Positions 6,952-15,755 of a stretch of DNA of 64,000 bases are shown here, piece by piece (the first letter of the stretch is position 1; each line of letters starts with the position of its first letter). The notes under the pieces are model-generated. The model had not been told where the DNA came from and made no database searches. It was given only the letters and a program-made list of their open reading frames with translations. The position numbers were made by a program, and so were the translations under genes. The stretch lies in the NCBI RefSeq assembly GCF_013315695.1, contig NZ_CP054353.1, one strand, 5' to 3'. Source of the stretch: Escherichia coli. GTDB taxonomy: Bacteria; Pseudomonadota; Gammaproteobacteria; Enterobacterales; Enterobacteriaceae.

Positions 6952-6970
6952 TTTCGTTTTTTAGTTATAA

Positions 6971-7001
6971 AAAACCTGCCATCGCTGGCAGGTTTTTTTT
7001 G
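6971..7001 (+). terminator. Rho-independent terminator of typA
   Basis: cctgccatcgctggcagg hairpin followed by tttttttt. Confidence 0.8.
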
Positions 7002-7056
7002 CTTATGGAAAACAAAATCCGCTGAAATTCCCAGCGGATTTTCCGAAATTTCAATT

Positions 7057-7845
7057 TCAGGATACTTCTTGCTCGGCAACCACCAGTTCAACATTCTCTT
7101 CACTTAACAACTGGCAGAAAGAATTGGGAGGCGGGGCATCAGTAAAAAAAGCCCTGACATTCCGTGCATTGCCAATTGAAACGGCAGCAGACGCGGCAAA
7201 CTTCGTATGATCGGCCACTAACAATGTATTCCGCGCATGTTTAATCATCGTTCTCGCGACTAACGCTTCATTTACATCAAATTCCAGTAGGGTGCCGTCA
7301 TGTTCAATGGCACCTATACTGGTGATTAAATAATCTGCGCGGAAGCCTTCAATAAAATCCACGGCTCCTGGGCCGATAATCCCGCCGTTATGAGCGCGTA
7401 AAGTGCCTCCCGGCACCATCACTTCAATATCCTGATTCTTATAAAGAATCTGTGCCACACGTAGGCTGTTAGTGATAATGCGTAAATCACGCCGGTTGAG
7501 TAATGCCCTGGCAACGGCTTCTACGGTTGTACCGATGGTGATAAAGACGGTACAGCGTTCGGGAAGGTAATCGGCGACTGCCTCAGCGATCGCCCGTTTC
7601 TCGGCGGTGAGCGAAAGTTCCCGTTGCTCAAAAGCGGTATTCATGACGCTGGAGACGCGCCCGGCCCCTCCATGATGACGGGTGATCAAGCCCTGCTCAC
7701 TGAGTTTTCGGATATCCCGGCGCACGGTTTGCGTTGAAACATCCAGCAGTTGTGCCAGTTCTTCAATATTCATATAACCGCGTTCTGCGATTAGATGAAC
7801 GAGTTGGTCATGGCGTGGATTACCTGTCACTTCGATGATACTCAT
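7057..7845 (-). CDS. DeoR-family transcriptional regulator (YihW/CsqR-like)
   Basis: 262-aa ORF; N-terminal HTH IEELAQLLDVSTQTVRRDIRKL; C-terminal DeoR sugar-phosphate-binding-type domain. Confidence 0.8.
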   Translation of the reverse strand: MSIIEVTGNPRHDQLVHLIAERGYMNIEELAQLLDVSTQTVRRDIRKLSEQGLITRHHGGAGRVSSVMNTAFEQRELSLTAEKRAIAEAVADYLPERCTVFITIGTTVEAVARALLNRRDLRIITNSLRVAQILYKNQDIEVMVPGGTLRAHNGGIIGPGAVDFIEGFRADYLITSIGAIEHDGTLLEFDVNEALVARTMIKHARNTLLVADHTKFAASAAVSIGNARNVRAFFTDAPPPNSFCQLLSEENVELVVAEQEVS

Positions 7846-7884
7846 GAATACTCCCTTGCCCCTCCTCGGTAGATGTTTACCATT

Positions 7885-8781
7885 TTACGCATAAAGTGAC
7901 AAAAATGATTCGGTTTGCTCACGATTAGGAATGCCGGCCCGACCGCCAGGCTGGGTACATTTCATCGCGGCAACCGCACTGGCAAAACGAATAGCCTCTT
8001 TTGTTGGCATTTTTTCTGCCAACGCTACCGCGAGTGCGCCGTGAAAAACATCGCCTGCTCCAGTGGTATCAACCACATTGACAGAAAATGCCTCCTGTTG
8101 ACACAAATGACCATCTTCAATCCACAACGATCCTTCAGAACCCAGCGTAACATACACTTTACCTGCTGTTTGTGTCGTTGCCTGGAACAAACCTTCTTCA
8201 GGTGACTGCAGGCCAGTCATGCGTTTCAGCCCTGGTGTTGAGAACACGGCGTGATCGGCAAGCGCGACAAGTGGAGAAATATCCTGCGGTGTCATATCGG
8301 CGTCTAAAAGCGTTGTCACACCCGCAAGGCGCGCTAGCGAGAATGCTTTTTCAGTACCGCTATGCCAGCGAACATCGGCCAGAATCAGATCATAACGAGA
8401 GAAATCGATCGCTTCTAACCATTCGGCATCAGTACCGAGATCAGGACTTGGATAATTAACGATAATCCGTTCGCCATGCTGATCAACGAGGATCGCTGAT
8501 TGCGACGAACGGGCGTTAGGATATCGGCGGCAAAATGCGGTATTGACGCCCCAACCCTCAAGTTCTGCAAGTAAGGTATTTCCACAACTGTCATCGCCGA
8601 CGCGACCGATGAAATCAACCTCCACGCCAAGCTTTGCGATTGCAACAGCGGCTGTTGCTGCCGGGCCGCCACCAATCTCAAGATAATGATTTGCCTGATA
8701 TTTCCCGCCGCCCTCCGGCAGAGTGGGCAAAGAATAAATTCTGTCCTGAACTGTGATACCCACGTATGCAATTCTGGTCAT
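7885..8781 (-). CDS. PfkB-family sugar kinase (YihV-like)
   Basis: Seen: GG dipeptide ...[13 protein letters not shown] and C-terminal [12 protein letters not shown]fkB signature; ATG at 8781 preferred over track TTG start at 8820. Confidence 0.8.
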
Positions 8782-8953
8782 ATTTGTCTTGTCCTGTTTA
8801 ATTTTGTCGTCTTTGGTCAATTTAAATGACGCAAATGATCAAATTAGTGATGCGTGTCGTGTTTTTGAACATAAATTACAAATATGCTCAAAAACAGACG
8901 AAAACGAATTTTCAATTGTCATTATTTTGTCAATGTCAGACAGGAGAGTATTC

Positions 8954-9832
8954 ATGGCAACCATTGCATTTCTCGGGCTGGGGCAGATGGGTAGCCCAAT
9001 GGCTAACAATCTATTGCAAAAAGGGCATTCATTGCAGGTATTTGATGTCAATGCACAGGCCGTCGATGCGCTAGTTACGCAGGGGGCCACTGCGGCACAA
9101 ACCCCAGCGGAAGCAGCAGCAGGCGCTGAATTTATCATCACTATGCTTCCCAATGGTGACATTGTTCGACAGGTTCTGTTGGGGGAAAAAGGCGTCTGTG
9201 AGGCTGTTTCATCTGACGCGTTATTGATTGATATGTCGACTATTCATCCCTTACAGACCGATGCATTAATACGGGAGTTACAAGAAAAAGGCATCAGTAT
9301 GATGGACGCTCCCGTGGGCAGAACGTCCGTGAATGCGATTGATGGCACATTGCTGATTTTAGCGGGTGGCACTGATGAGCAGATTGCACGTGCACGCCCG
9401 ATTCTCATGTGCATGGGTAATGAGCTGGTCGAGGCTGGCGGCCCAGGAATGGGGATCCGCGTGAAGCTAATTAACAACTATATGAGCATTGCGCTTAATG
9501 CGCTGTCCTCCGAGGCCGCTGTGTTATGTGAGTCACTGGGATTAAATCTTGATGTCGCAATTAAGGTGATGAGTGGTACGGCAGCAGGGAAAGGACATTT
9601 TACGACCACCTGGCCTGGCAAAGTGCTGAAAGGCGATCTTTCACCCGCCTTCATGGTGGATCTGGCGTTGAAAGATCTGCGTATTGCAGTTGACGTCGCT
9701 CGGGAGACGGGGGCACCGCTCAATATGGGGATTGCAGCAGAAAGTTATTACGCTGCAGCAAGTCAAGACGGCAAAGGGCGGCAGGACTGGAGTGCCCTGC
9801 TAAATCAGGTTCGCCAGCAGGCTGGTCTTTAA
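8954..9832 (+). CDS. NAD(P)-dependent beta-hydroxyacid dehydrogenase (YihU-like, 3-hydroxyisobutyrate dehydrogenase family)
   Basis: Start ATG at 8954 preceded by aggaga RBS; Rossmann motif [14 protein letters not shown]; track ORF begins earlier at a non-ATG codon. Confidence 0.8.
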
Positions 9833-9856
9833 TTTTATCTATTAACAGGAGTTTCT

Positions 9857-10744
9857 ATGTCATCCCACTTCACCCCATTTACGCTGAAAGATATCTCCCG
9901 CCCAGGTGGTGGATTTGCCATGTTAGCTGTCGATCAGCGTGAGGCCATGCGCTTGATGTTTGCGGCAGCAGGGCAGCCAAAACCCATCGCCGACAGTGTA
10001 CTCACCGATTTTAAAGTTGCCGCGACCCGAATCCTTTCTCCTTATGCTTCTGCCGTTCTGGCGGATAAACAATTTTGTCTTGAGCAAATAGTCGAGCAGG
10101 GCGCTGTTGCTAATTCTTGCGGCCTGATTGTCGCTGCCGATCTTTTTATCCCAGGTAATGGCATCCCGGTTGATAGCGTTGAAATAGATATGTCCGTCGA
10201 CCCGCATAAAGCCCGTGAAATGGGGGCTAAGGCAATGAAATTACTTGTACTCTGGCGTGAAGATGAACCCGCAGAGGAACGTCTGGCAATGGTTGATAAA
10301 TTTGTTCGTCGCTGCCGTAGTGCCGGGCTGGTGAGCATTATTGAACCTGTGGTGCGTCCACCTCGTCGCGGTTGGGACTTTGATCGTGAAAGCGCCATTG
10401 TTGCCGCCGCCGCAGAGCTTGGTGGAACAGAGGCTGATCTTTACAAAGCCGAGATGCCATTAGGGGGCAAAGGCGATGAAAAAACCTTACTTGCCGCCTG
10501 TCAGCAACTTAACGATCAGATGAAGATGCCGTGGGTAATTCTTTCTTCTGGCGTTGATGCCGATATTTTTGGCCGTGCAGTAAGTATTGCCATGAAAGGT
10601 GGTGCGTCGGGCTTCCTGGCTGGACGAGCGGTTTGGGCGTCGGTTGTTGGTGCACAAGATCCACAAACTATGCTGCGCGATGTCTCTGTTCCTCGTTTAC
10701 AACGGTTGGCAGAAATTGTCGATGAAGGTATCGCGCAACGCTAA
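9857..10744 (+). CDS. class I aldolase, YihT/LacD-like (sugar-phosphate aldolase)
   Basis: 295-aa ORF with RBS aggag; resembles the YihT sulfofructose-phosphate aldolase / tagatose-bisphosphate aldolase family from memory. Confidence 0.7.
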
Positions 10745-10776
10745 TCCCCTATGGATATCGATTCTGGAGAATAACA

Positions 10777-11787
10777 ATGGATAAAATTACCCAGGTTTTA
10801 TTTTCAGATATTGGGAAAGTCACCACTCAATATGTTGAAGTACCACACCAGGAACTTAAACCGCACGAAGTGCGGATTGCGCCTGTGTTCTATGGGATAT
10901 GCGGTTCGGATCTGCATGTTCTGAAAGGCGGTCATCCGTTTGCCAAACCACCTGTCGTCCCCGGTCATGAAATTGCAGCGCGCGTTACGGAAGTTGGCAG
11001 CGACGTTAAAAATGTACAGCCGGGCGATCATGTTGTGGTCGATCCCATCATGGCTTGCATGGAATGCCGAGCCTGCAAAGCAGGACGTTTTAATCTTTGT
11101 GAACCACCGCAGGTTGCTGGTTTTCGCGCACCGGGCTTTGCTCGCTCACAACACATTGTTCCTGCGCGTAATTGCCATGTCGCACCAGCCTCTTTACCGC
11201 TAAAAGTGTTGGCCTTTGCCGAACCGGCGGCTTGTGCCCGTCACTGCGTTAACCGAATGCCGAAAGCTTCTCTGGAAAGCATACTGGTAATTGGTGCCGG
11301 AACGATAGGCTTATCCATCGTGCAGGCACTGCGCATTATGGGGGCAGGTAAGATTACCGTGATTGAACCTGACGCTGCCAAACGCGCGCTGGCGTTAAAG
11401 CTGGGCGCAGCAGAAGTTTGGGCACCAGGTGAGCTGGCCGCAGATGTGCGATTTACGGGGGCGATTGATGTCGTTGCAGCGCAGGCCACGCTTAACGATG
11501 CATGTACCCGTGTATATGCCGGAGGCACCGTCGTGTGCATGGGCGTACCAAGTGGGCCGCGTGAAATACCATTACCGATGATGCAACGTTTCGAGCGTGA
11601 CTTGCTCAACTCTGGCATGTACATCCCTGAAGATTTCGATGCTGTTATCGAATGGCTGGCGGATGGGCGGTTTGATACCAGTGAACTGGTTACCGATTTA
11701 TTTGCCATTGAGGATGCAGCGGCGGCATTTGAACGCGCGCAGCAAAATGACTCCATAAAGGTCATGCTGCAATTTGTGCCGGAATGA
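10777..11787 (+). CDS. zinc-dependent alcohol/polyol dehydrogenase (MDR superfamily)
   Basis: GICGSDLHV and PGHEIAARV zinc/catalytic motifs; second Cys cluster CMECRACKAGRFNLC (structural Zn); GAGTIG NAD-binding motif. Confidence 0.8.
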   Translation: MDKITQVLFSDIGKVTTQYVEVPHQELKPHEVRIAPVFYGICGSDLHVLKGGHPFAKPPVVPGHEIAARVTEVGSDVKNVQPGDHVVVDPIMACMECRACKAGRFNLCEPPQVAGFRAPGFARSQHIVPARNCHVAPASLPLKVLAFAEPAACARHCVNRMPKASLESILVIGAGTIGLSIVQALRIMGAGKITVIEPDAAKRALALKLGAAEVWAPGELAADVRFTGAIDVVAAQATLNDACTRVYAGGTVVCMGVPSGPREIPLPMMQRFERDLLNSGMYIPEDFDAVIEWLADGRFDTSELVTDLFAIEDAAAAFERAQQNDSIKVMLQFVPE

Positions 11788-11856
11788 TTTTCTAAATCTC
11801 TGTCTGGCGCTGCGTCACGTCAGCGCCACCCTACAACAATTAAAAAGGACACTGCG

Positions 11857-13290
11857 ATGAGTCAAATCACCAGTCCTGCAACTTATTCAATTAGTCGGCC
11901 ACAGGACGTAATTGATATTGTTAATAAGAACTCTGCAATCAACACCAGTATCGGCGTTATTTTTATTGCTTTGGGCGGCATATTGATTGATGCCTACCAG
12001 GCGGCGATGGTGGGGTTTGGTAATAAATACATTGCCGCTCAATTCGGCATTTCGCCGGGTCTTGCTGCAACCGTCAATGCATCAGTATTAATCGCCGCGT
12101 TAATTGGCGGTTTATTAGCGAACCGAGTAATAAACCGCTTTGGGCAAAAGCGGGCATTTATTATTGGCATGGGGCTGTGCACCATCGGTGCTGCAGCGGT
12201 AGCTATTGCTCCCAGTATCTGGTGGGTGCTGGTGTGCCGCGTCATCATGGGCTTTGGTTTAGGCATCGACTTCCCTTTGGCAACCAATGCCGTGGCAGAG
12301 CTTCGTGGTTCAACGTCGAAGAAAACCGGAACGTCGGTCAACCTCTGGCAAATGGCCTGGTATGTTTCGACAACCGTTGTTTATTTGGTACTTTTGCCGC
12401 TGCTTCTGTCGGGTATCGCTGAAGAACAATTGTGGCGTTACGGAATATTCATCGGAGCTATTTTTGCAGTCATCTTCATGATTTTGCGTTACTTCTTTAT
12501 TGGTGAATCCGCAATGTGGGCCGCACGCGTCGGGCGTTACCAGGAAGCGTGCGACATTCTGGGAAAACGTTATGGTGTTCAGGCTCGCGTTGCGGCATCG
12601 GGTACAACAGAAGCGAAATTCTCGGAAAAAGCAGAGAATAAATACAGTGGTGGATATGGCATCTTATTTAATGATCGTTACCGCAAACGCACCATTCTTG
12701 GCTGTGTCGTGGCAACCATGCAGGCGTGGCAATATAACGCCGTAGGTGTTTATCTTCCTCTTACGTTGGCGGGAATAATAAGTGGCGGGCTTACTGGCGC
12801 GTTGACCGGTTCTGCCGTCGTGAATGCCCTTTGTGGGGTGACAGGCGGGATGATCGGCTCGTTTATTCTCCAACGACTGGGTACTCGCCGACAGTCGATG
12901 TATGGATTTGCTGTTGTGACCTTAGCATTGCTGTCGTTAGGCGCACTGGCAACGACTAATCCCTGGCTGTCTTTAGGATTATTGGGATCAATTATTTTCT
13001 TCCATTCAGCGGGTCCTGGTGGGCTGGGCATGACCATTGCCACACTCTCTTATCCTCCCGCTATTCGCCCTACTGGGGTCGGATTTGCCCGCGCTATTAT
13101 GCGCACAGGGGCAATTGCAGGACTCATTTTCTGGCCGATGCTGTGGGGTGCGTTGAAAACTGAAGCGTTTTACTGGTTGGCAATCGTGCCATTCCTGGGG
13201 TTCCTGACCTGCGTATTGATTAATTGGGAACCACTGGGTGCAAATGTTGATGCTGAGGATGCAGAGGTTCTGGCTGAATTGAAGAAATAA
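11857..13290 (+). CDS. MFS-type transporter (sugar porter-like)
   Basis: 477-aa highly hydrophobic ORF with about 12 predicted TM segments; MFS-like GxLaNRxGQKR loop. Confidence 0.7.
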   Translation: MSQITSPATYSISRPQDVIDIVNKNSAINTSIGVIFIALGGILIDAYQAAMVGFGNKYIAAQFGISPGLAATVNASVLIAALIGGLLANRVINRFGQKRAFIIGMGLCTIGAAAVAIAPSIWWVLVCRVIMGFGLGIDFPLATNAVAELRGSTSKKTGTSVNLWQMAWYVSTTVVYLVLLPLLLSGIAEEQLWRYGIFIGAIFAVIFMILRYFFIGESAMWAARVGRYQEACDILGKRYGVQARVAASGTTEAKFSEKAENKYSGGYGILFNDRYRKRTILGCVVATMQAWQYNAVGVYLPLTLAGIISGGLTGALTGSAVVNALCGVTGGMIGSFILQRLGTRRQSMYGFAVVTLALLSLGALATTNPWLSLGLLGSIIFFHSAGPGGLGMTIATLSYPPAIRPTGVGFARAIMRTGAIAGLIFWPMLWGALKTEAFYWLAIVPFLGFLTCVLINWEPLGANVDAEDAEVLAELKK

Positions 13291-13327
13291 ATTAATGCGC
13301 ATCGGCTTAAACCGATGCGCATTAATT
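13290..13327. repeat. perfect 16-bp-arm palindrome between the two transporter genes
   Basis: aattaatgcgcatcgg-cttaaa-ccgatgcgcattaatt; no following T-run. Confidence 0.6.
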
Positions 13328-13388
13328 CAAACTGCCCACGTTTAGTGGTTCGTATCCCAGATTTCTCGCCTACCAGGAGAGGAAAATT

Positions 13389-14738
13389 ATGTCTGAAAAG
13401 TTACCCGCACCGCGTGAAGGGCTTTCCGGTAAAGCCATGAGACGTGTCGTTATGGGCAGTTTCGCAGGCGCGTTAATGGAATGGTATGACTTCTTTATTT
13501 TTGGCACGGCAGCAGGACTGGTATTTGCACCGCTGTTTTATCCAGACAGCGATCCTTTTATAGGTCTTATAGCCGCCTTTGCGACCTTTGGTGTCGGTTT
13601 TCTGACTCGTCCTTTAGGTGGCATCGTCTTTGGTCATTTTGGCGATAAAATCGGGCGAAAAATAACACTTATCTGGACGCTGGCTATTGTCGGTTGCTCC
13701 ACATTTTTGATTGGTTTTATTCCGACGTATCAGGAAATTGGCATTTGGGCACCGCTTGTATTAATGGTGCTGCGTTTGATTCAGGGCTTTGGTCTTGGTG
13801 GCGAGTACGGCGGAGCGGCATTGATGACCATAGAATCAGCGCCCGAATCCCGACGCGGATTTTTAGGTTCACTCCCGCAAACGGCTGCGTCAGTGGGTAT
13901 TATGCTGGCAACCGGTATTTTTGCTCTCTGTAACCATTTTCTTACTTCGGAGCAGTTTCTCTCCTGGGGATGGCGCATTCCGTTTTGGCTTTCTGCGGTG
14001 ATGTTGATCGTTGGGCTGTTTATCCGCCTGCATACCGAAGAAACACTGGATTTTCAAAAGCAAAAAACGACGAATAATAAAGAAAAGTCCGTTCCTCCGT
14101 TGATTGAATTATTCAAAAAACATCCACGAAATATTTTATTGGCACTGGGTGCGAGGCTGGCGGAAAGTGTCTCCTCTAATATTATTAACGCCTTTGGTAT
14201 TGTCTATATTTCCAGCCAATTAGCATTGTCGCGAGATATTCCCCTGACGGGTATGTTGATTGCCTCGGCGATCGGTATTTTCAGTTGTCCATTGGTTGGA
14301 TGGTTATCAGATCGTATAGGTCAAAAAAGTCTGTATTTGTCGGGAGCAGGATTTTGTGTCCTGTTCGCGTTTCCTTTCTTCTTATTACTGGATAGCAAAA
14401 GTACGCTCATCATCTGGTGCAGTATGATCCTCGGCTACAACTTAGGTCCGACGATGATGTTTGCCGTGCAGCCAACACTTTTCACCCGCATGTTCGGTAC
14501 CAAAGTACGATATACCGGCCTTTCTTTTGCTTATCAATTTTCCGCGATTCTTGGCGGACTAAGCCCCCTTATCGCCTCAAGTTTGCTGGCGCTAGGGGGA
14601 GGAAAACCGTGGTATGTCGCTCTGTTTTTATTTGCTGTCTCAGTTCTTTCCTTTGTTTGCGTCTGGCTGATTGAGCCGACCGATGAACAAGAAACCGCTT
14701 CTTACCGCTACATCAGGGAACAATCTCATGAAAACTGA
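13389..14738 (+). CDS. MFS transporter, metabolite:H+ symporter (MHS)-like
   Basis: 449-aa ORF; N-terminal MEWYDFFIFGTAAG and GHFGDKIGRK motifs typical of the ProP/KgtP/ShiA family. Confidence 0.7.
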   Translation: MSEKLPAPREGLSGKAMRRVVMGSFAGALMEWYDFFIFGTAAGLVFAPLFYPDSDPFIGLIAAFATFGVGFLTRPLGGIVFGHFGDKIGRKITLIWTLAIVGCSTFLIGFIPTYQEIGIWAPLVLMVLRLIQGFGLGGEYGGAALMTIESAPESRRGFLGSLPQTAASVGIMLATGIFALCNHFLTSEQFLSWGWRIPFWLSAVMLIVGLFIRLHTEETLDFQKQKTTNNKEKSVPPLIELFKKHPRNILLALGARLAESVSSNIINAFGIVYISSQLALSRDIPLTGMLIASAIGIFSCPLVGWLSDRIGQKSLYLSGAGFCVLFAFPFFLLLDSKSTLIIWCSMILGYNLGPTMMFAVQPTLFTRMFGTKVRYTGLSFAYQFSAILGGLSPLIASSLLALGGGKPWYVALFLFAVSVLSFVCVWLIEPTDEQETASYRYIREQSHEN

Positions 14739-15615
14739 ACGAAAAAACGAGCATTACCTGGCGCTACAACAGGCGTTTGACGCGCCATGGCCTGGGCCTG
14801 TAGGAGAGTTAGTGACGCTGGAAAAAGGCAATATTCACCTGCAGATTTATCCGCATGATGGTGCCAGGATAACCTCGTTAAAGGCATTTGGTTCTGAAGT
14901 ATTACGCCAATGGCAGCCGCAGCGCAGAGCTTTTCAGTATGGCTGTTTCCCAATGGTGCCGTGGGCAGGGCGACTGGGGAATGCGACGCTGAATGCTGGT
15001 GGGCAATGTTATTCTTTACCCGCCAATAAACCACCACATGCGTTGCATGGTATGGCTTGTTACTCAACGTGGGAAATCATCGACAAAACAGCAGATTCCC
15101 TGACTTTACGTATGCCCCTGGCTTCACCGTGGCCCTGGCAAGGGGAAGTGATTCAGACTTTTTTGCTGGAGAACGATGCGCTGGTTTTGCAACTGGAAGT
15201 CCATTCATATGCCGATACATTCCCGGCCTCCGCAGGCTGGCATCCGTGGTTTGCGAAAAAGCTGACTCCGCAAAATACAGAATCGTTGCAGGTGCTTTTT
15301 GATGCGGACTGGCAAGAAGAAGCGGGTAGTGATGAACTGCCAACTGGAAATCGTATCTCTCCTCAAGCCGGTCCCTGGGATGACTGTTTTGGTTTTTATA
15401 ACGGGGTGAAGGTTAAGTTACTGTGGCCTGGTAAACTCGCGATGACCATGATCTCTTCTGCAAACAGTCTGGTGGTATTTGATAAACAGCCCGATGCCAC
15501 CTGTATTAACCCGCTGACTCAGGCACCTAACGCAATAAATCTAACGCCGGAATTGGTGACACCAGATAGGCCGCTGGTCATCGAAACTCGTTGGCAATTT
15601 ACACCTGAATCTTAA
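14728..15615 (+). CDS. aldose 1-epimerase family protein (YihR-like mutarotase)
   Basis: ATG at 14728 overlaps the preceding stop (ATGAAAACTGA); HPYFNL-like region and conserved His/Glu pattern of the galactose-mutarotase fold. Confidence 0.65.
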   Translation: MKTERKNEHYLALQQAFDAPWPGPVGELVTLEKGNIHLQIYPHDGARITSLKAFGSEVLRQWQPQRRAFQYGCFPMVPWAGRLGNATLNAGGQCYSLPANKPPHALHGMACYSTWEIIDKTADSLTLRMPLASPWPWQGEVIQTFLLENDALVLQLEVHSYADTFPASAGWHPWFAKKLTPQNTESLQVLFDADWQEEAGSDELPTGNRISPQAGPWDDCFGFYNGVKVKLLWPGKLAMTMISSANSLVVFDKQPDATCINPLTQAPNAINLTPELVTPDRPLVIETRWQFTPES

Positions 15616-15755
15616 CCATTCATCTATTGCGAAAAAGCCAGTGAAATTACTCTGCTTTTTCGCAATCAGCATCACAAGATTACCCTTATTGCCACATAGC
15701 CAAACCCATCCTTTCCCGCTACAGTTAATTTCTTGTGGCGCGAAAGGAGGCAAAA

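Follow-up and report, generated by a model that had tools for sequence, protein, structure and literature searches.

Differential operon decay has been described by a model in which a protective 3′ structure acts together with a lower ribosome density on the downstream part of the transcript and with cleavage at the motif RN|WUU (Dar & Sorek 2018, PMC5927463). Most of the protective structures sit inside the downstream coding region (PMC5927463). Here, we describe a palindrome, H1, between two transporter genes (MFS1 and MFS2) of Escherichia coli. It is probably a stem-loop of the sense transcript of a multi-gene operon, and its most likely role would be that of a protective 3′ structure at the MFS1 boundary. 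Positions are those of the window, the whole 64-kb stretch of DNA that was analysed (Table 1).

Table 1 Features of the MFS1-MFS2 junction and their positions in the window
Feature	Position	Strand	Remarks
MFS1, upstream cistron	11857..13290	+	477 aa; sugar-porter-like; stop codon overlaps first base of H1
H1, palindrome / RNA stem-loop	13290..13327	+	38 nt; −24.0 kcal/mol folded alone
H1, 5′ arm	13290-13305	+	
H1, loop	13306-13311	+	CTTAAA
H1, 3′ arm	13312-13327	+	
H2, weak 4-bp hairpin	13336..13348	+	CCAC-GUUUA-GUGG; RNA fold
Candidate RNase E site	13359..13363	+	AG|AUU, between H2 and H3; motif RN|WUU quoted in PMC5927463
H3	13362..13384	+	UUUCUC-G-CCU-ACC-AGG-A-GAGGAA; RNAalifold; −8.1 kcal/mol
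MFS2, downstream cistron	13389..14738	+	449 aa; metabolite/H+ symporter, ShiA-like
Aldose-1-epimerase gene	14728-15615	+	overlaps MFS2 end by 11 nt

The genes are arranged in the order yihU-like reductase, aldolase, Zn-dependent alcohol dehydrogenase, MFS1, MFS2 and epimerase, and this is indeed the yih-type cluster named in the first-pass annotation, which was made from the DNA before the present analysis. All neighbours of H1 are encoded on the plus strand with short spacers; there is no convergent gene, and everything downstream is on the plus strand as well. A promoter scan found no promoter-like site in the MFS1-MFS2 spacer, and an internal promoter for MFS2 was rejected for that reason. 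Judged only by the gene arrangement, MFS1 and MFS2 are presumably co-transcribed. The divergent promoter region of the cluster is located about 4.4 kb from H1; the inverted repeat that it contains (8860-8896) is unrelated to H1. Long and short yih cassettes were the subject of a 2025 paper that contains RNA-seq for the strain Nissle 1917 (PMC12608037); neither its text nor its supplement gives values for the two MFS genes or mentions hairpins or terminators.

H1 has the sequence AATTAATGCGCATCGG-CTTAAA-CCGATGCGCATTAATT (window 13290-13327). The two arms of 16 nt are perfectly complementary and are separated by a spacer of 6 nt, as had been proposed for a palindrome within 13285-13330. The site had been placed directly after the stop of the first transporter gene and some 60 bp before the second. 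In fact, H1 and the MFS1 stop codon TAA (13288-13290) share one base, 13290, and 61 nt separate the end of H1 from the start of MFS2 (13389). The palindrome is confirmed, and chance is no reasonable explanation for it: with a uniform base model, 64 kb should contain about 1.6e-4 repeats of this kind, the full pattern was matched 0 times in 100 shuffles, and H1 ranks first among the short-range inverted repeats of the window. A calculation of the RNA folding energy, suggested by the first-pass annotation, gave −30.4 kcal/mol for an 81-nt context of H1 (z = −5.6) and −38.0 kcal/mol for the entire spacer, taken as 104 nt (z = −6.5). The GC-rich core of the stem is GCGCAUCGG/CCGAUGCGC; the A/U pairs that flank it are specific for Escherichia.

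A palindrome at such a place could belong to a dispersed repeat family, and many genomic copies had been named as the outcome that would argue against a local function. Using the 108-nt spacer and the 38-nt palindrome alone (E ≤ 10) as BLAST queries against 5426 complete E. coli genomes, we found H1 in one copy per genome in 1328 of them, all carriers of the "short yih" cluster, and no dispersed copies beyond its own locus. Two 'places' per genome are reported, since a palindrome is matched on the plus and on the minus strand alike, and both are the same single locus. Thus, a REP/BIME, a MITE-like element or another small repeat family was rejected, in line with the earlier statement that H1 does not look like a REP unit. 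The carriers, about a quarter of the E. coli genomes, include Nissle 1917, ST131 and many ExPEC strains. Within E. coli, alleles of H1 differ at 13291 (T/A) and in the loop (CTTAAA, CTTAAG or TTTAAG), and these differences fall exactly where the palindrome is perfected or flipped.

Homology of the MFS1-MFS2 spacer extends over Escherichia, Citrobacter, Mixta, Trabulsiella, Erwinia typographi, Enterobacter, Phytobacter and metagenome contigs, and a hairpin homologous to H1 is found at the same position in Citrobacter, Mixta, Trabulsiella and the metagenome relatives. Some Citrobacter-like relatives have an H1 homologue with a real U-tract. RNAalifold on the spacer alignment recovered H1 and H3. 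In an alignment of 15 distinct sequences, 80.4% of the H1 cells are paired, compared with 70.7±1.6% in shuffles (0 of 500 reach the observed value) and 28-42% when the pairing is slid, and 9 of the 16 pairs have changed on both sides in a compensatory manner; since the 15 sequences are related, the cell counts overstate the number of independent covariation events. Across the homologues, the loop differs in sequence, as do most positions of the stem, and only the pairing is kept, which fits a generic structural barrier better than a binding site for a specific ligand or protein. The GCGC blocks in both arms are invariant.

The mismatches that occur tell which strand is under selection. The 11 core pairs of H1 comprise 143 Watson-Crick and 14 G·U cells but no A·C cell. 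Homologues with G·U pairs fold much more stably on the plus than on the minus strand (for example, −19.9 vs −10.2 in Mixta, −20.0 vs −10.3 in the homologue L091). That G·U is tolerated and A·C absent points to the sense-strand RNA as the target of selection, as opposed to a DNA operator or the antisense strand. The first-pass annotation had left the choice between an RNA stem-loop and a protein-binding site; as to structure, covariation and the sense-strand G·U pairs speak for the former, and the covarying half-sites against the latter.

How would such a stem-loop act? In the mechanism that we propose, an endonuclease would cut the poorly translated downstream part of the transcript (MFS2-epimerase), 3′-to-5′ exonucleases would then degrade the RNA back as far as H1 only, and the upstream cistrons would persist above the level of MFS2 and epimerase. 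A possible cut would be at the candidate RNase E site AG|AUU in the interval between H2 and H3; the segment CAGAUUUCUC at this site is kept in most homologues, and its assignment to RNase E is putative, based on the motif. H3 may reinforce the polarity by lowering the ribosome density on MFS2. Its 3′ arm is the Shine-Dalgarno region of MFS2 (GGAGAGG), where UUUCUC pairs with GAGGAA, and occlusion of this region may lower MFS2 translation. H3 (UUUCUCGCCGACCCGGAGAGGAAA) is nearly invariant in sequence across genera; 97.5% of its cells are paired across 18 sequences, but this says little about structure because it is mostly invariance, with one covarying pair (GC/UA/GU). H2 is paired in just 61% of the alignment and is therefore weakly supported in E. 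coli. At the same place, Erwinia typographi, Enterobacter 10-1 and Phytobacter have a strong terminator-like hairpin (CUGUGGGUGAAnUUCACCCACAG + UUUUCUC).

In addition to acting as a barrier, H1 may be a source of some pausing or leaky termination. A rival reading takes H1 altogether for a leaky intrinsic terminator or attenuator, at which some of the transcripts would end after MFS1, with less transcription of MFS2 and epimerase. We regard this rival reading as unlikely, but several features point in its direction. The 9-bp core with 7 G-C pairs is a GC-rich hairpin as in intrinsic terminators, and GCGCAUCGG-CUUAAA-CCGAUGCGC (−16.2 kcal/mol) precedes the A/U-rich AUUAAUU; together, the A-rich 5′ and A/U-rich 3′ sides of H1 resemble a bidirectional terminator. 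UUUUUCG follows directly after the stem in the Citrobacter freundii-like metagenome contigs L050 and L063, UUUCUC or UUUCCU does so in other homologues, and the canonical terminator-like hairpin with UUUUCUC in the H2 region of the Erwinia/Enterobacter/Phytobacter spacer belongs here, too. On the other hand, the plus-strand tail of E. coli is poor. With the GC core taken as the stem there are 4 U in AUUAAUUC, and the full H1 stem is followed by CAAACU, without a U-tract. The score of the T-tract after the hairpin is 1.19 in E. coli versus 3.58 in L050, and the terminator scan called no plus-strand terminator at H1. The earlier remark that no U-run follows the palindrome was therefore correct (plus-strand tail CAAACUGCC). 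Moreover, the hairpin is conserved across lineages and the U-tract is not. The U enrichment in several homologues suggests that the element may have started out as a leaky terminator and not as a pure decay barrier. The two readings overlap, since the hairpin would protect a terminated 3′ end as well.

Hairpins between cistrons are no rarity, and some of them may be left over from terminators and have no function at present. It is quite unlikely that H1 is such a functionless relic, be it the decaying terminator of an earlier junction or a palindrome produced by template switching (quasipalindrome correction). The E. coli alleles, with T/A at 13291 and three loop variants, are the product expected of hairpin-templated mutation, and the U-tract is degenerate in several lineages. 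However, the pairing is retained in at least four genera (Escherichia, Citrobacter, Mixta and Trabulsiella) despite two-sided changes in 9 of 16 pairs, and DNA-level processes do not predict a mismatch bias towards the sense strand (14 G·U, 0 A·C). Furthermore, distant taxa have non-homologous hairpins at this junction: all eight distant loci with spacers of 48-86 nt have an unrelated GC-rich hairpin just past the MFS1 stop, and none of the three with spacers of 15-19 nt has one. When metagenomes were scanned with the H3 pattern, 61 loci came up; the homologous junction accounts for only 11 of them, and the remaining loci were discarded as unrelated hairpins of the form TTCTCCCCG...GGGGAGAGGAAA.

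It is tempting to speculate that the whole 98-nt MFS1-MFS2 spacer with H1, H2 and H3 is an undescribed conserved cis-regulatory RNA of the Enterobacterales that switches MFS2 and epimerase, but we consider this improbable. The signal would be a protein, a small RNA or a pathway metabolite, and the switch would, for example, couple termination/antitermination to sequestration of the Shine-Dalgarno sequence. In the Erwinia/Enterobacter/Phytobacter spacer, the U-tract of the terminator-like hairpin serves at the same time as the anti-Shine-Dalgarno arm of H3, an overlap that is reminiscent of attenuators. A permissive scan against Rfam 15 gave best matches of 23 and 20 bits compared with gathering thresholds of 90 and 114; these were generic hairpins on the minus strand.

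The perfect dyad symmetry and the invariant GCGC blocks in both arms would also be in accordance with a DNA-level protein-binding palindrome, for example an additional operator for the DeoR-family regulator of the cluster (a homologue of YihW/CsqR) or a roadblock formed by another dimeric DNA-binding protein. This is very improbable: the half-sites covary, and the G·T juxtapositions of homologues break the DNA dyad but keep the RNA pairing. Neither does the half-site TTAATGCGCATCGG recur: with up to 3 mismatches there are 5 matches in the 64-kb window versus 9.3 expected, and the window contains no other close match and none near the cluster promoter. Moreover, the site lies between co-oriented genes outside of the distant divergent promoter region, and arms of 16 nt exceed typical operator half-sites. 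A DeoR-type operator was rejected on these grounds, as its half-sites covary and none recurs at the promoter.

Several known RNase III sites are long, perfect helices between cistrons. H1 is long, perfect and intercistronic, too, but that it is an RNase III processing site, at which a cut would divide the operon mRNA into two halves, is hardly credible. A helix of 16 bp is below the approximately two helical turns preferred by RNase III, and in the homologues the helix comprises no more than 10-13 pairs, G·U included, versus 16 bp in E. coli, so that they do not share a requirement for a long duplex. Equally hard to sustain is a minus-strand terminator that stops antisense transcripts from within MFS2: the scan flags a terminator-like hairpin there with 19 pairs and a U-rich tail (UUUAUUUCUUC), the U-tract that the sense strand lacks, and promoter-like hexamers are present on the minus strand at 14206-14178, but there is no convergent gene with everything downstream on the plus strand, the tail reads the Lys/Glu codons and the stop codon from the opposite strand, A·C mismatches weaken the minus-strand helix in homologues, and the sense-only G·U pairs together with the weaker minus-strand folds contradict it. 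The U-rich tail and the flag on this strand had been missed in the first-pass annotation.

If confirmed, the protective stem-loop would be another case of tuning of expression within an operon by RNA structure, here in an accessory sugar- or sulfosugar-type cluster. A level of MFS1 above that of MFS2 and epimerase, if true, could help to assign the roles of importer and exporter to the two transporters. H1 opens no new mechanism and resolves no long-standing question.

Altogether, H1 is best read as a protective 3′ stem-loop or a weak attenuator within an operon, a function that would be of the malE-malF or differential operon decay type. With REP/BIME elements it shares that it is an extragenic palindrome, imperfect to perfect, of about 35-40 nt after a stop codon and between genes that appear to be co-transcribed. 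It differs from them in having one copy, found only in carriers of the cluster, in the absence of the REP consensus and in having positional orthologues in other genera. The similarity to intrinsic terminators and attenuators is in the GC-rich hairpin right after the stop, A-rich on its 5′ and A/U-rich on its 3′ side, in the true U-tract of L050 and L063 and in the canonical terminator-like hairpin of the Erwinia-group spacer; in contrast to intrinsic terminators, H1 of E. coli is without a U-tract on the sense strand, and the conserved part is the helix and not the U-run. The malE-malF structure belongs to the REP repeats, with hundreds of copies, whereas H1 is single-copy. The protective structures of the published model are mostly in the downstream coding region, whereas H1 is in the spacer (PMC5927463). 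Otherwise, the architecture agrees with malE-malF and differential operon decay: a stable hairpin is located at the 3′ boundary of the upstream cistron in a co-oriented operon. Sequestration of the MFS2 Shine-Dalgarno sequence in H3 may, in addition, weaken the downstream translation. As in differential operon decay, the structure is conserved in related species (15 homologues, 0 of 500 shuffles), and an RN|WUU-type motif is present in the unstructured stretch downstream.

Between MFS1 and MFS2, the two MFS transporter genes of the yih-type cluster, lies H1, a 38-nt palindrome with perfect arms of 16 nt and a spacer of 6 nt. Its opening A is the third base of the TAA stop codon of MFS1, and MFS2 begins 61 nt past it. 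The first-pass annotation had described this palindrome correctly; only its coordinates were tightened slightly. With uniform base frequencies, 64 kb should contain about 1.6e-4 perfect hairpin repeats with 16-nt arms, the pattern did not occur in 100 shuffles, and H1 is the top-ranked short-range inverted repeat of the window. The folding calculation proposed in the annotation gave a strong structure: −30.4 kcal/mol (z = −5.6) for 81 nt of H1 context as RNA, −24.0 kcal/mol for the hairpin by itself and −38.0 kcal/mol (z = −6.5) for the entire 104-nt spacer between the genes.

Two major alleles of H1 occur in E. coli. The allele of the window (loop CTTAAA, A at 13291) is found in about one third of the carriers, that of EC958 and Nissle (loop TTTAAG, T at 13291) in about two thirds. 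Across 36 of 38 nt the two are exact reverse complements of each other, and with A in place of T at 13291 the window allele has a stem of 16 instead of 14 pairs. A third, fully self-complementary allele (loop CTTAAG) is present in JNE23-011; 21 more genomes, judged by their 95-99% identity band, most simply carry it as well. All alleles fold equally well (−24.0 to −25.9 kcal/mol). The pattern resembles, and could be due to, hairpin-mediated loop inversion or quasipalindrome correction, or alternatively two symmetric transitions.

The cluster sits between typA and yihX (RefSeq annotation), in a region that several E. coli chromosomes share at 100% identity. This is what Kaznadzey et al. 2025 (PMC12608037) call the "short yih cassette", carried by Nissle 1917 and numerous ExPEC strains. 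They describe it as yihTUVW only and as not induced by sulfoquinovose, and discuss neither the four downstream genes nor any hairpin. In the window, four more genes continue downstream of yihTUVW on the same strand and with short spacers: a Zn-dependent alcohol dehydrogenase, the two transporters and an aldose 1-epimerase. They suggest that the cassette is not truncated but encodes a complete pathway acting on some substrate other than sulfoquinovose. Synteny, compared at the MFS1-spacer-MFS2 junction only, is kept in Citrobacter, Mixta, Trabulsiella, Erwinia typographi and Phytobacter. In Propionivibrio, Telmatospirillum, Propionibacteriaceae, an alphaproteobacterial MAG and Pleomorphomonas, a gene starting ...IGFIGLGAMGG comes directly after the MFS1 homologue, its start codon overlapping or abutting the stop of the latter. 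The encoded N-terminus is of the YihU/3-hydroxyisobutyrate-dehydrogenase type and links MFS1 to the reductase step. The DeoR-type regulator binds the yihU/V intergenic region (PMC12608037). In strain MS 21-1 the interval between typA and the regulator gene is occupied by an IS4 element that is absent from the window.

Features of the cluster and of the MFS1-MFS2 spacer (window positions)
Feature	Position	Strand	Basis or remark
Terminator-like palindrome AAAAAACCTGCCA/TGGCAGGTTTTTT	6969-6998		bidirectional; between convergent typA and DeoR-regulator genes
Terminator-like palindrome AAAATCCGCTG/CAGCGGATTTT	7014-7042		bidirectional; same interval
yihTUVW plus four added genes	7057-15615
DeoR/GlpR regulator		-	RefSeq annotation
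Sugar kinase		-	RefSeq annotation; PfkB type by family scan
Inverted repeat TGTTTTTGAACATA-N9-TATGCTCAAAAACA	8860-8896		14-nt arms, 93% complementary; divergent sugar kinase/yihU-like region; candidate operator of the DeoR-type regulator
yihU, sulfolactaldehyde 3-reductase		+	RefSeq annotation; YihU equivalog, 581 bits
Aldolase	after yihU		RefSeq annotation; LacD/DeoC type by family scan
Zinc-dependent alcohol dehydrogenase	after aldolase		RefSeq annotation
Possible stem GGCGCUG...CAGCGCC	11806-11827		past alcohol dehydrogenase stop; outside minimum-free-energy fold
MFS1, 477 aa	11857-13290	+	RefSeq MFS transporter; sugar-porter-like by family scan
H1, AATTAATGCGCATCGG-CTTAAA-CCGATGCGCATTAATT	13290-13327		read from window sequence
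H3, UUUCUC-G-CCU-ACC-AGG-A-GAGGAA	13362-13384		UUUCUC pairs with GAGGAA, CCU with AGG
MFS2, 449 aa	from 13389	+	RefSeq MFS transporter; ShiA-like metabolite/H+ symporter by family scan
Aldose 1-epimerase	after MFS2		RefSeq annotation; 11-nt overlap with MFS2 end
Hairpin ATTGCGAAAAAGC...GCTTTTTCGCAAT	15626-15666		perfect 13-nt arms; 11 nt past epimerase stop; no U-tail

Scanning with MFS1, one genome being taken for each species, yielded 28 loci. Close relatives (Escherichia sp. MOD1, five Citrobacter genomes, Mixta tenebrionis, Trabulsiella, Erwinia typographi, Enterobacter sp. 10-1 and Phytobacter ursingii) have a spacer of about 95-103 nt upstream of the MFS2 homologue that can be aligned to the window, and seven further distinct spacers came from metagenomes, scanned for a pattern taken from the conserved 3' portion (TTCTCNCCGNNNNGGAGAGGAAA). 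Most matches of that scan were unrelated perfect hairpins, TTCTCCCCG-N4-GGGGAGAGGAAA, in contigs from soil and thermal springs; several reappear in similar flanking sequence and are possibly a small repeat of those organisms. RNAalifold predicted two helices from 14 sequences, H1 and, just upstream of the MFS2 start codon, H3. In the H1 alignment of 15 distinct sequences, 80.4% of the cells are in standard pairs, compared with 70.7±1.6 in column shuffles, none of which (0/500) reached the observed value; sliding the 3' partners by 1-3 columns lowered pairing to 28-42%. Changes on both sides are seen in 9 of the 16 pairs, for example 15/31 (GC↔AU), 10/36 (AU/UA/GU/CG/GC) and 17/29 (CG↔UA). Even within Escherichia, one pair that is A-U in the window is C-G in MOD1 (TTAATG...CATTAA against TTCATG...CATGAA), a compensatory change. 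The loop sequences are not conserved. More distant loci with spacers of 48-86 nt (Edaphovirga, Leminorella, Budvicia, Sutterella, Vibrio, Succinivibrionaceae and two Citrobacter loci) all carry an unrelated GC-rich hairpin at most about 25 nt from the MFS1 stop (8/8); such a hairpin is absent in the three distant loci with spacers of 15-19 nt. H1 is a strong, single-copy, covariation-conserved RNA helix of the sense strand at the 3' boundary of MFS1.

What could such a helix do? The predicted H3 encloses the GGAGAGG Shine-Dalgarno sequence of MFS2, 6 nt upstream of the ATG, and is expected to occlude it. At −8.1 to −12.2 kcal/mol, H3 is modest in energy. In 18 sequences 97.5% of its cells are paired; most pairs are invariant and one covaries (GC/UA/GU). 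The 5' (anti-Shine-Dalgarno) arm is far better conserved than H1 or than H2, the hairpin between H1 and H3, and from Escherichia to Erwinia typographi the H3 sequence is near-invariant while the remaining spacer diverges. The single-stranded stretch 5' of H3 contains AG|AUU, a candidate match to the RNase E motif RN|WUU as cited in PMC5927463. In model A of that paper, a downstream gene with fewer ribosomes is cut by RNase E and degraded 3' to 5', and a 3' structure guards the upstream gene. The paper also reports that E. coli, Salmonella and Enterobacter have such protective structures in conserved form. The order H1, AG|AUU, H3 matches this model by analogy. The genes would be co-transcribed, as suggested by their co-orientation and by a promoter scan that found no promoter-like site in the spacer. 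After a downstream cut, H1 would block PNPase and RNase II, and the net result would be more MFS1 than MFS2 and epimerase, the latter presumably sharing the fate of MFS2 because the two genes overlap. We regard this decay-barrier/attenuator complex as a whole as a fairly probable explanation of H1.

Leaky termination is the alternative that survives best. In E. coli the full stem is directly followed on the sense strand by CAAACUGCC; the GC core alone (−16.2 kcal/mol) would have AUUAAUUC as its tail. The terminator scan of the window called no + strand terminator at H1, and the T-tract score, of the d'Aubenton-Carafa type, is 1.19 (homologues, 0.67 to 3.58), in agreement with the initial remark that a U-run is missing. 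In two C. freundii-like contigs UUUUUCG lies directly 3' of the stem, and these hairpins could count as modest terminators. H1 is weak (about −8 kcal/mol) in the Erwinia/Enterobacter/Phytobacter group, where H2 is CUGUGGGUGAAnUUCACCCACAG followed by UUUUCUC, a textbook terminator shape; it was seen in Erwinia typographi, Enterobacter sp. 10-1, Phytobacter ursingii and a metagenome relative. The H2 variants CUGUGGGUGAAnUUCACCCACAG and CUGUGGGCCAGUGUUGCCCACAG differ by compensatory changes, and the UUUUCUC tract also forms the H3 arm that pairs with the Shine-Dalgarno region, an overlap reminiscent of attenuators. What all lineages share is one or more strong hairpins after the MFS1 stop and before the ribosome-binding site of MFS2; a U-tract is not shared. 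For this reason we consider H1 of E. coli more likely a protective 3' structure than a terminator and rank the decay barrier ahead of leaky termination, although some pausing or leaky termination may occur.

A protein-binding DNA site, left open beside a stabilising or processing stem-loop in the first-pass annotation, fares less well. The 11 core pairs of H1 comprise 143 Watson-Crick, 14 G·U and no A·C cells. A sense-strand G·U pair corresponds to A·C on the antisense strand and to G·T in duplex DNA, a mismatch in both cases. At loci with G·U, the sense strand folds markedly better than the antisense strand (Mixta, −19.9 vs −10.2; metagenome locus L091, −20.0 vs −10.3; C. amalonaticus, −21.5 vs −16.7). 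Together with the unconserved loops, this argues that selection acts on the helix in the sense mRNA and not on a protein-bound DNA dyad or an antisense transcript; the RNA half of the original proposal is thereby upheld, and the DNA half, with G·T tolerated and half-sites scarce, is not. Half-sites at ≤3 mismatches number 5 in the window, against 9.3 expected, with none near the cluster, and about 4.4 kb separate H1 from the divergent promoter region, where an unrelated inverted repeat lies. A minus-strand "terminator" call in E. coli is attributed to A-rich Lys/Glu codons and the stop codon upstream. Membership in a REP/BIME or MITE family is excluded: in 28 Gb of complete E. coli genomes, neither the 108-nt spacer (E ≤ 0.01) nor the 38-nt palindrome (E ≤ 10) matched any locus but its own, which 1328-1329 of 5426 genomes carry (two "places" per genome reflect the palindrome matching itself on both strands). 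The multiple genome copies that the first-pass annotation named as refuting evidence were therefore not found.

Compared with known systems, H1 thus differs from REP elements in its copy number, the lone locus per carrier genome bearing out the initial impression that it is not REP-like, and from operators in its lack of sequence conservation. It partly resembles an intrinsic terminator, but lacks the defining U-tract on the sense strand. The Rfam scan gave no score near the gathering score of any family. A joint role of H1, H2 and H3 as a hitherto undescribed leader, actively regulated and serving MFS2 and the epimerase, is very improbable. By analogy, H1 would work like the protective stem-loop of malE-malF and other intercistronic ones, and it is best filed as a locus-specific addition to this known class of mRNA stem-loops, which will not surprise specialists.
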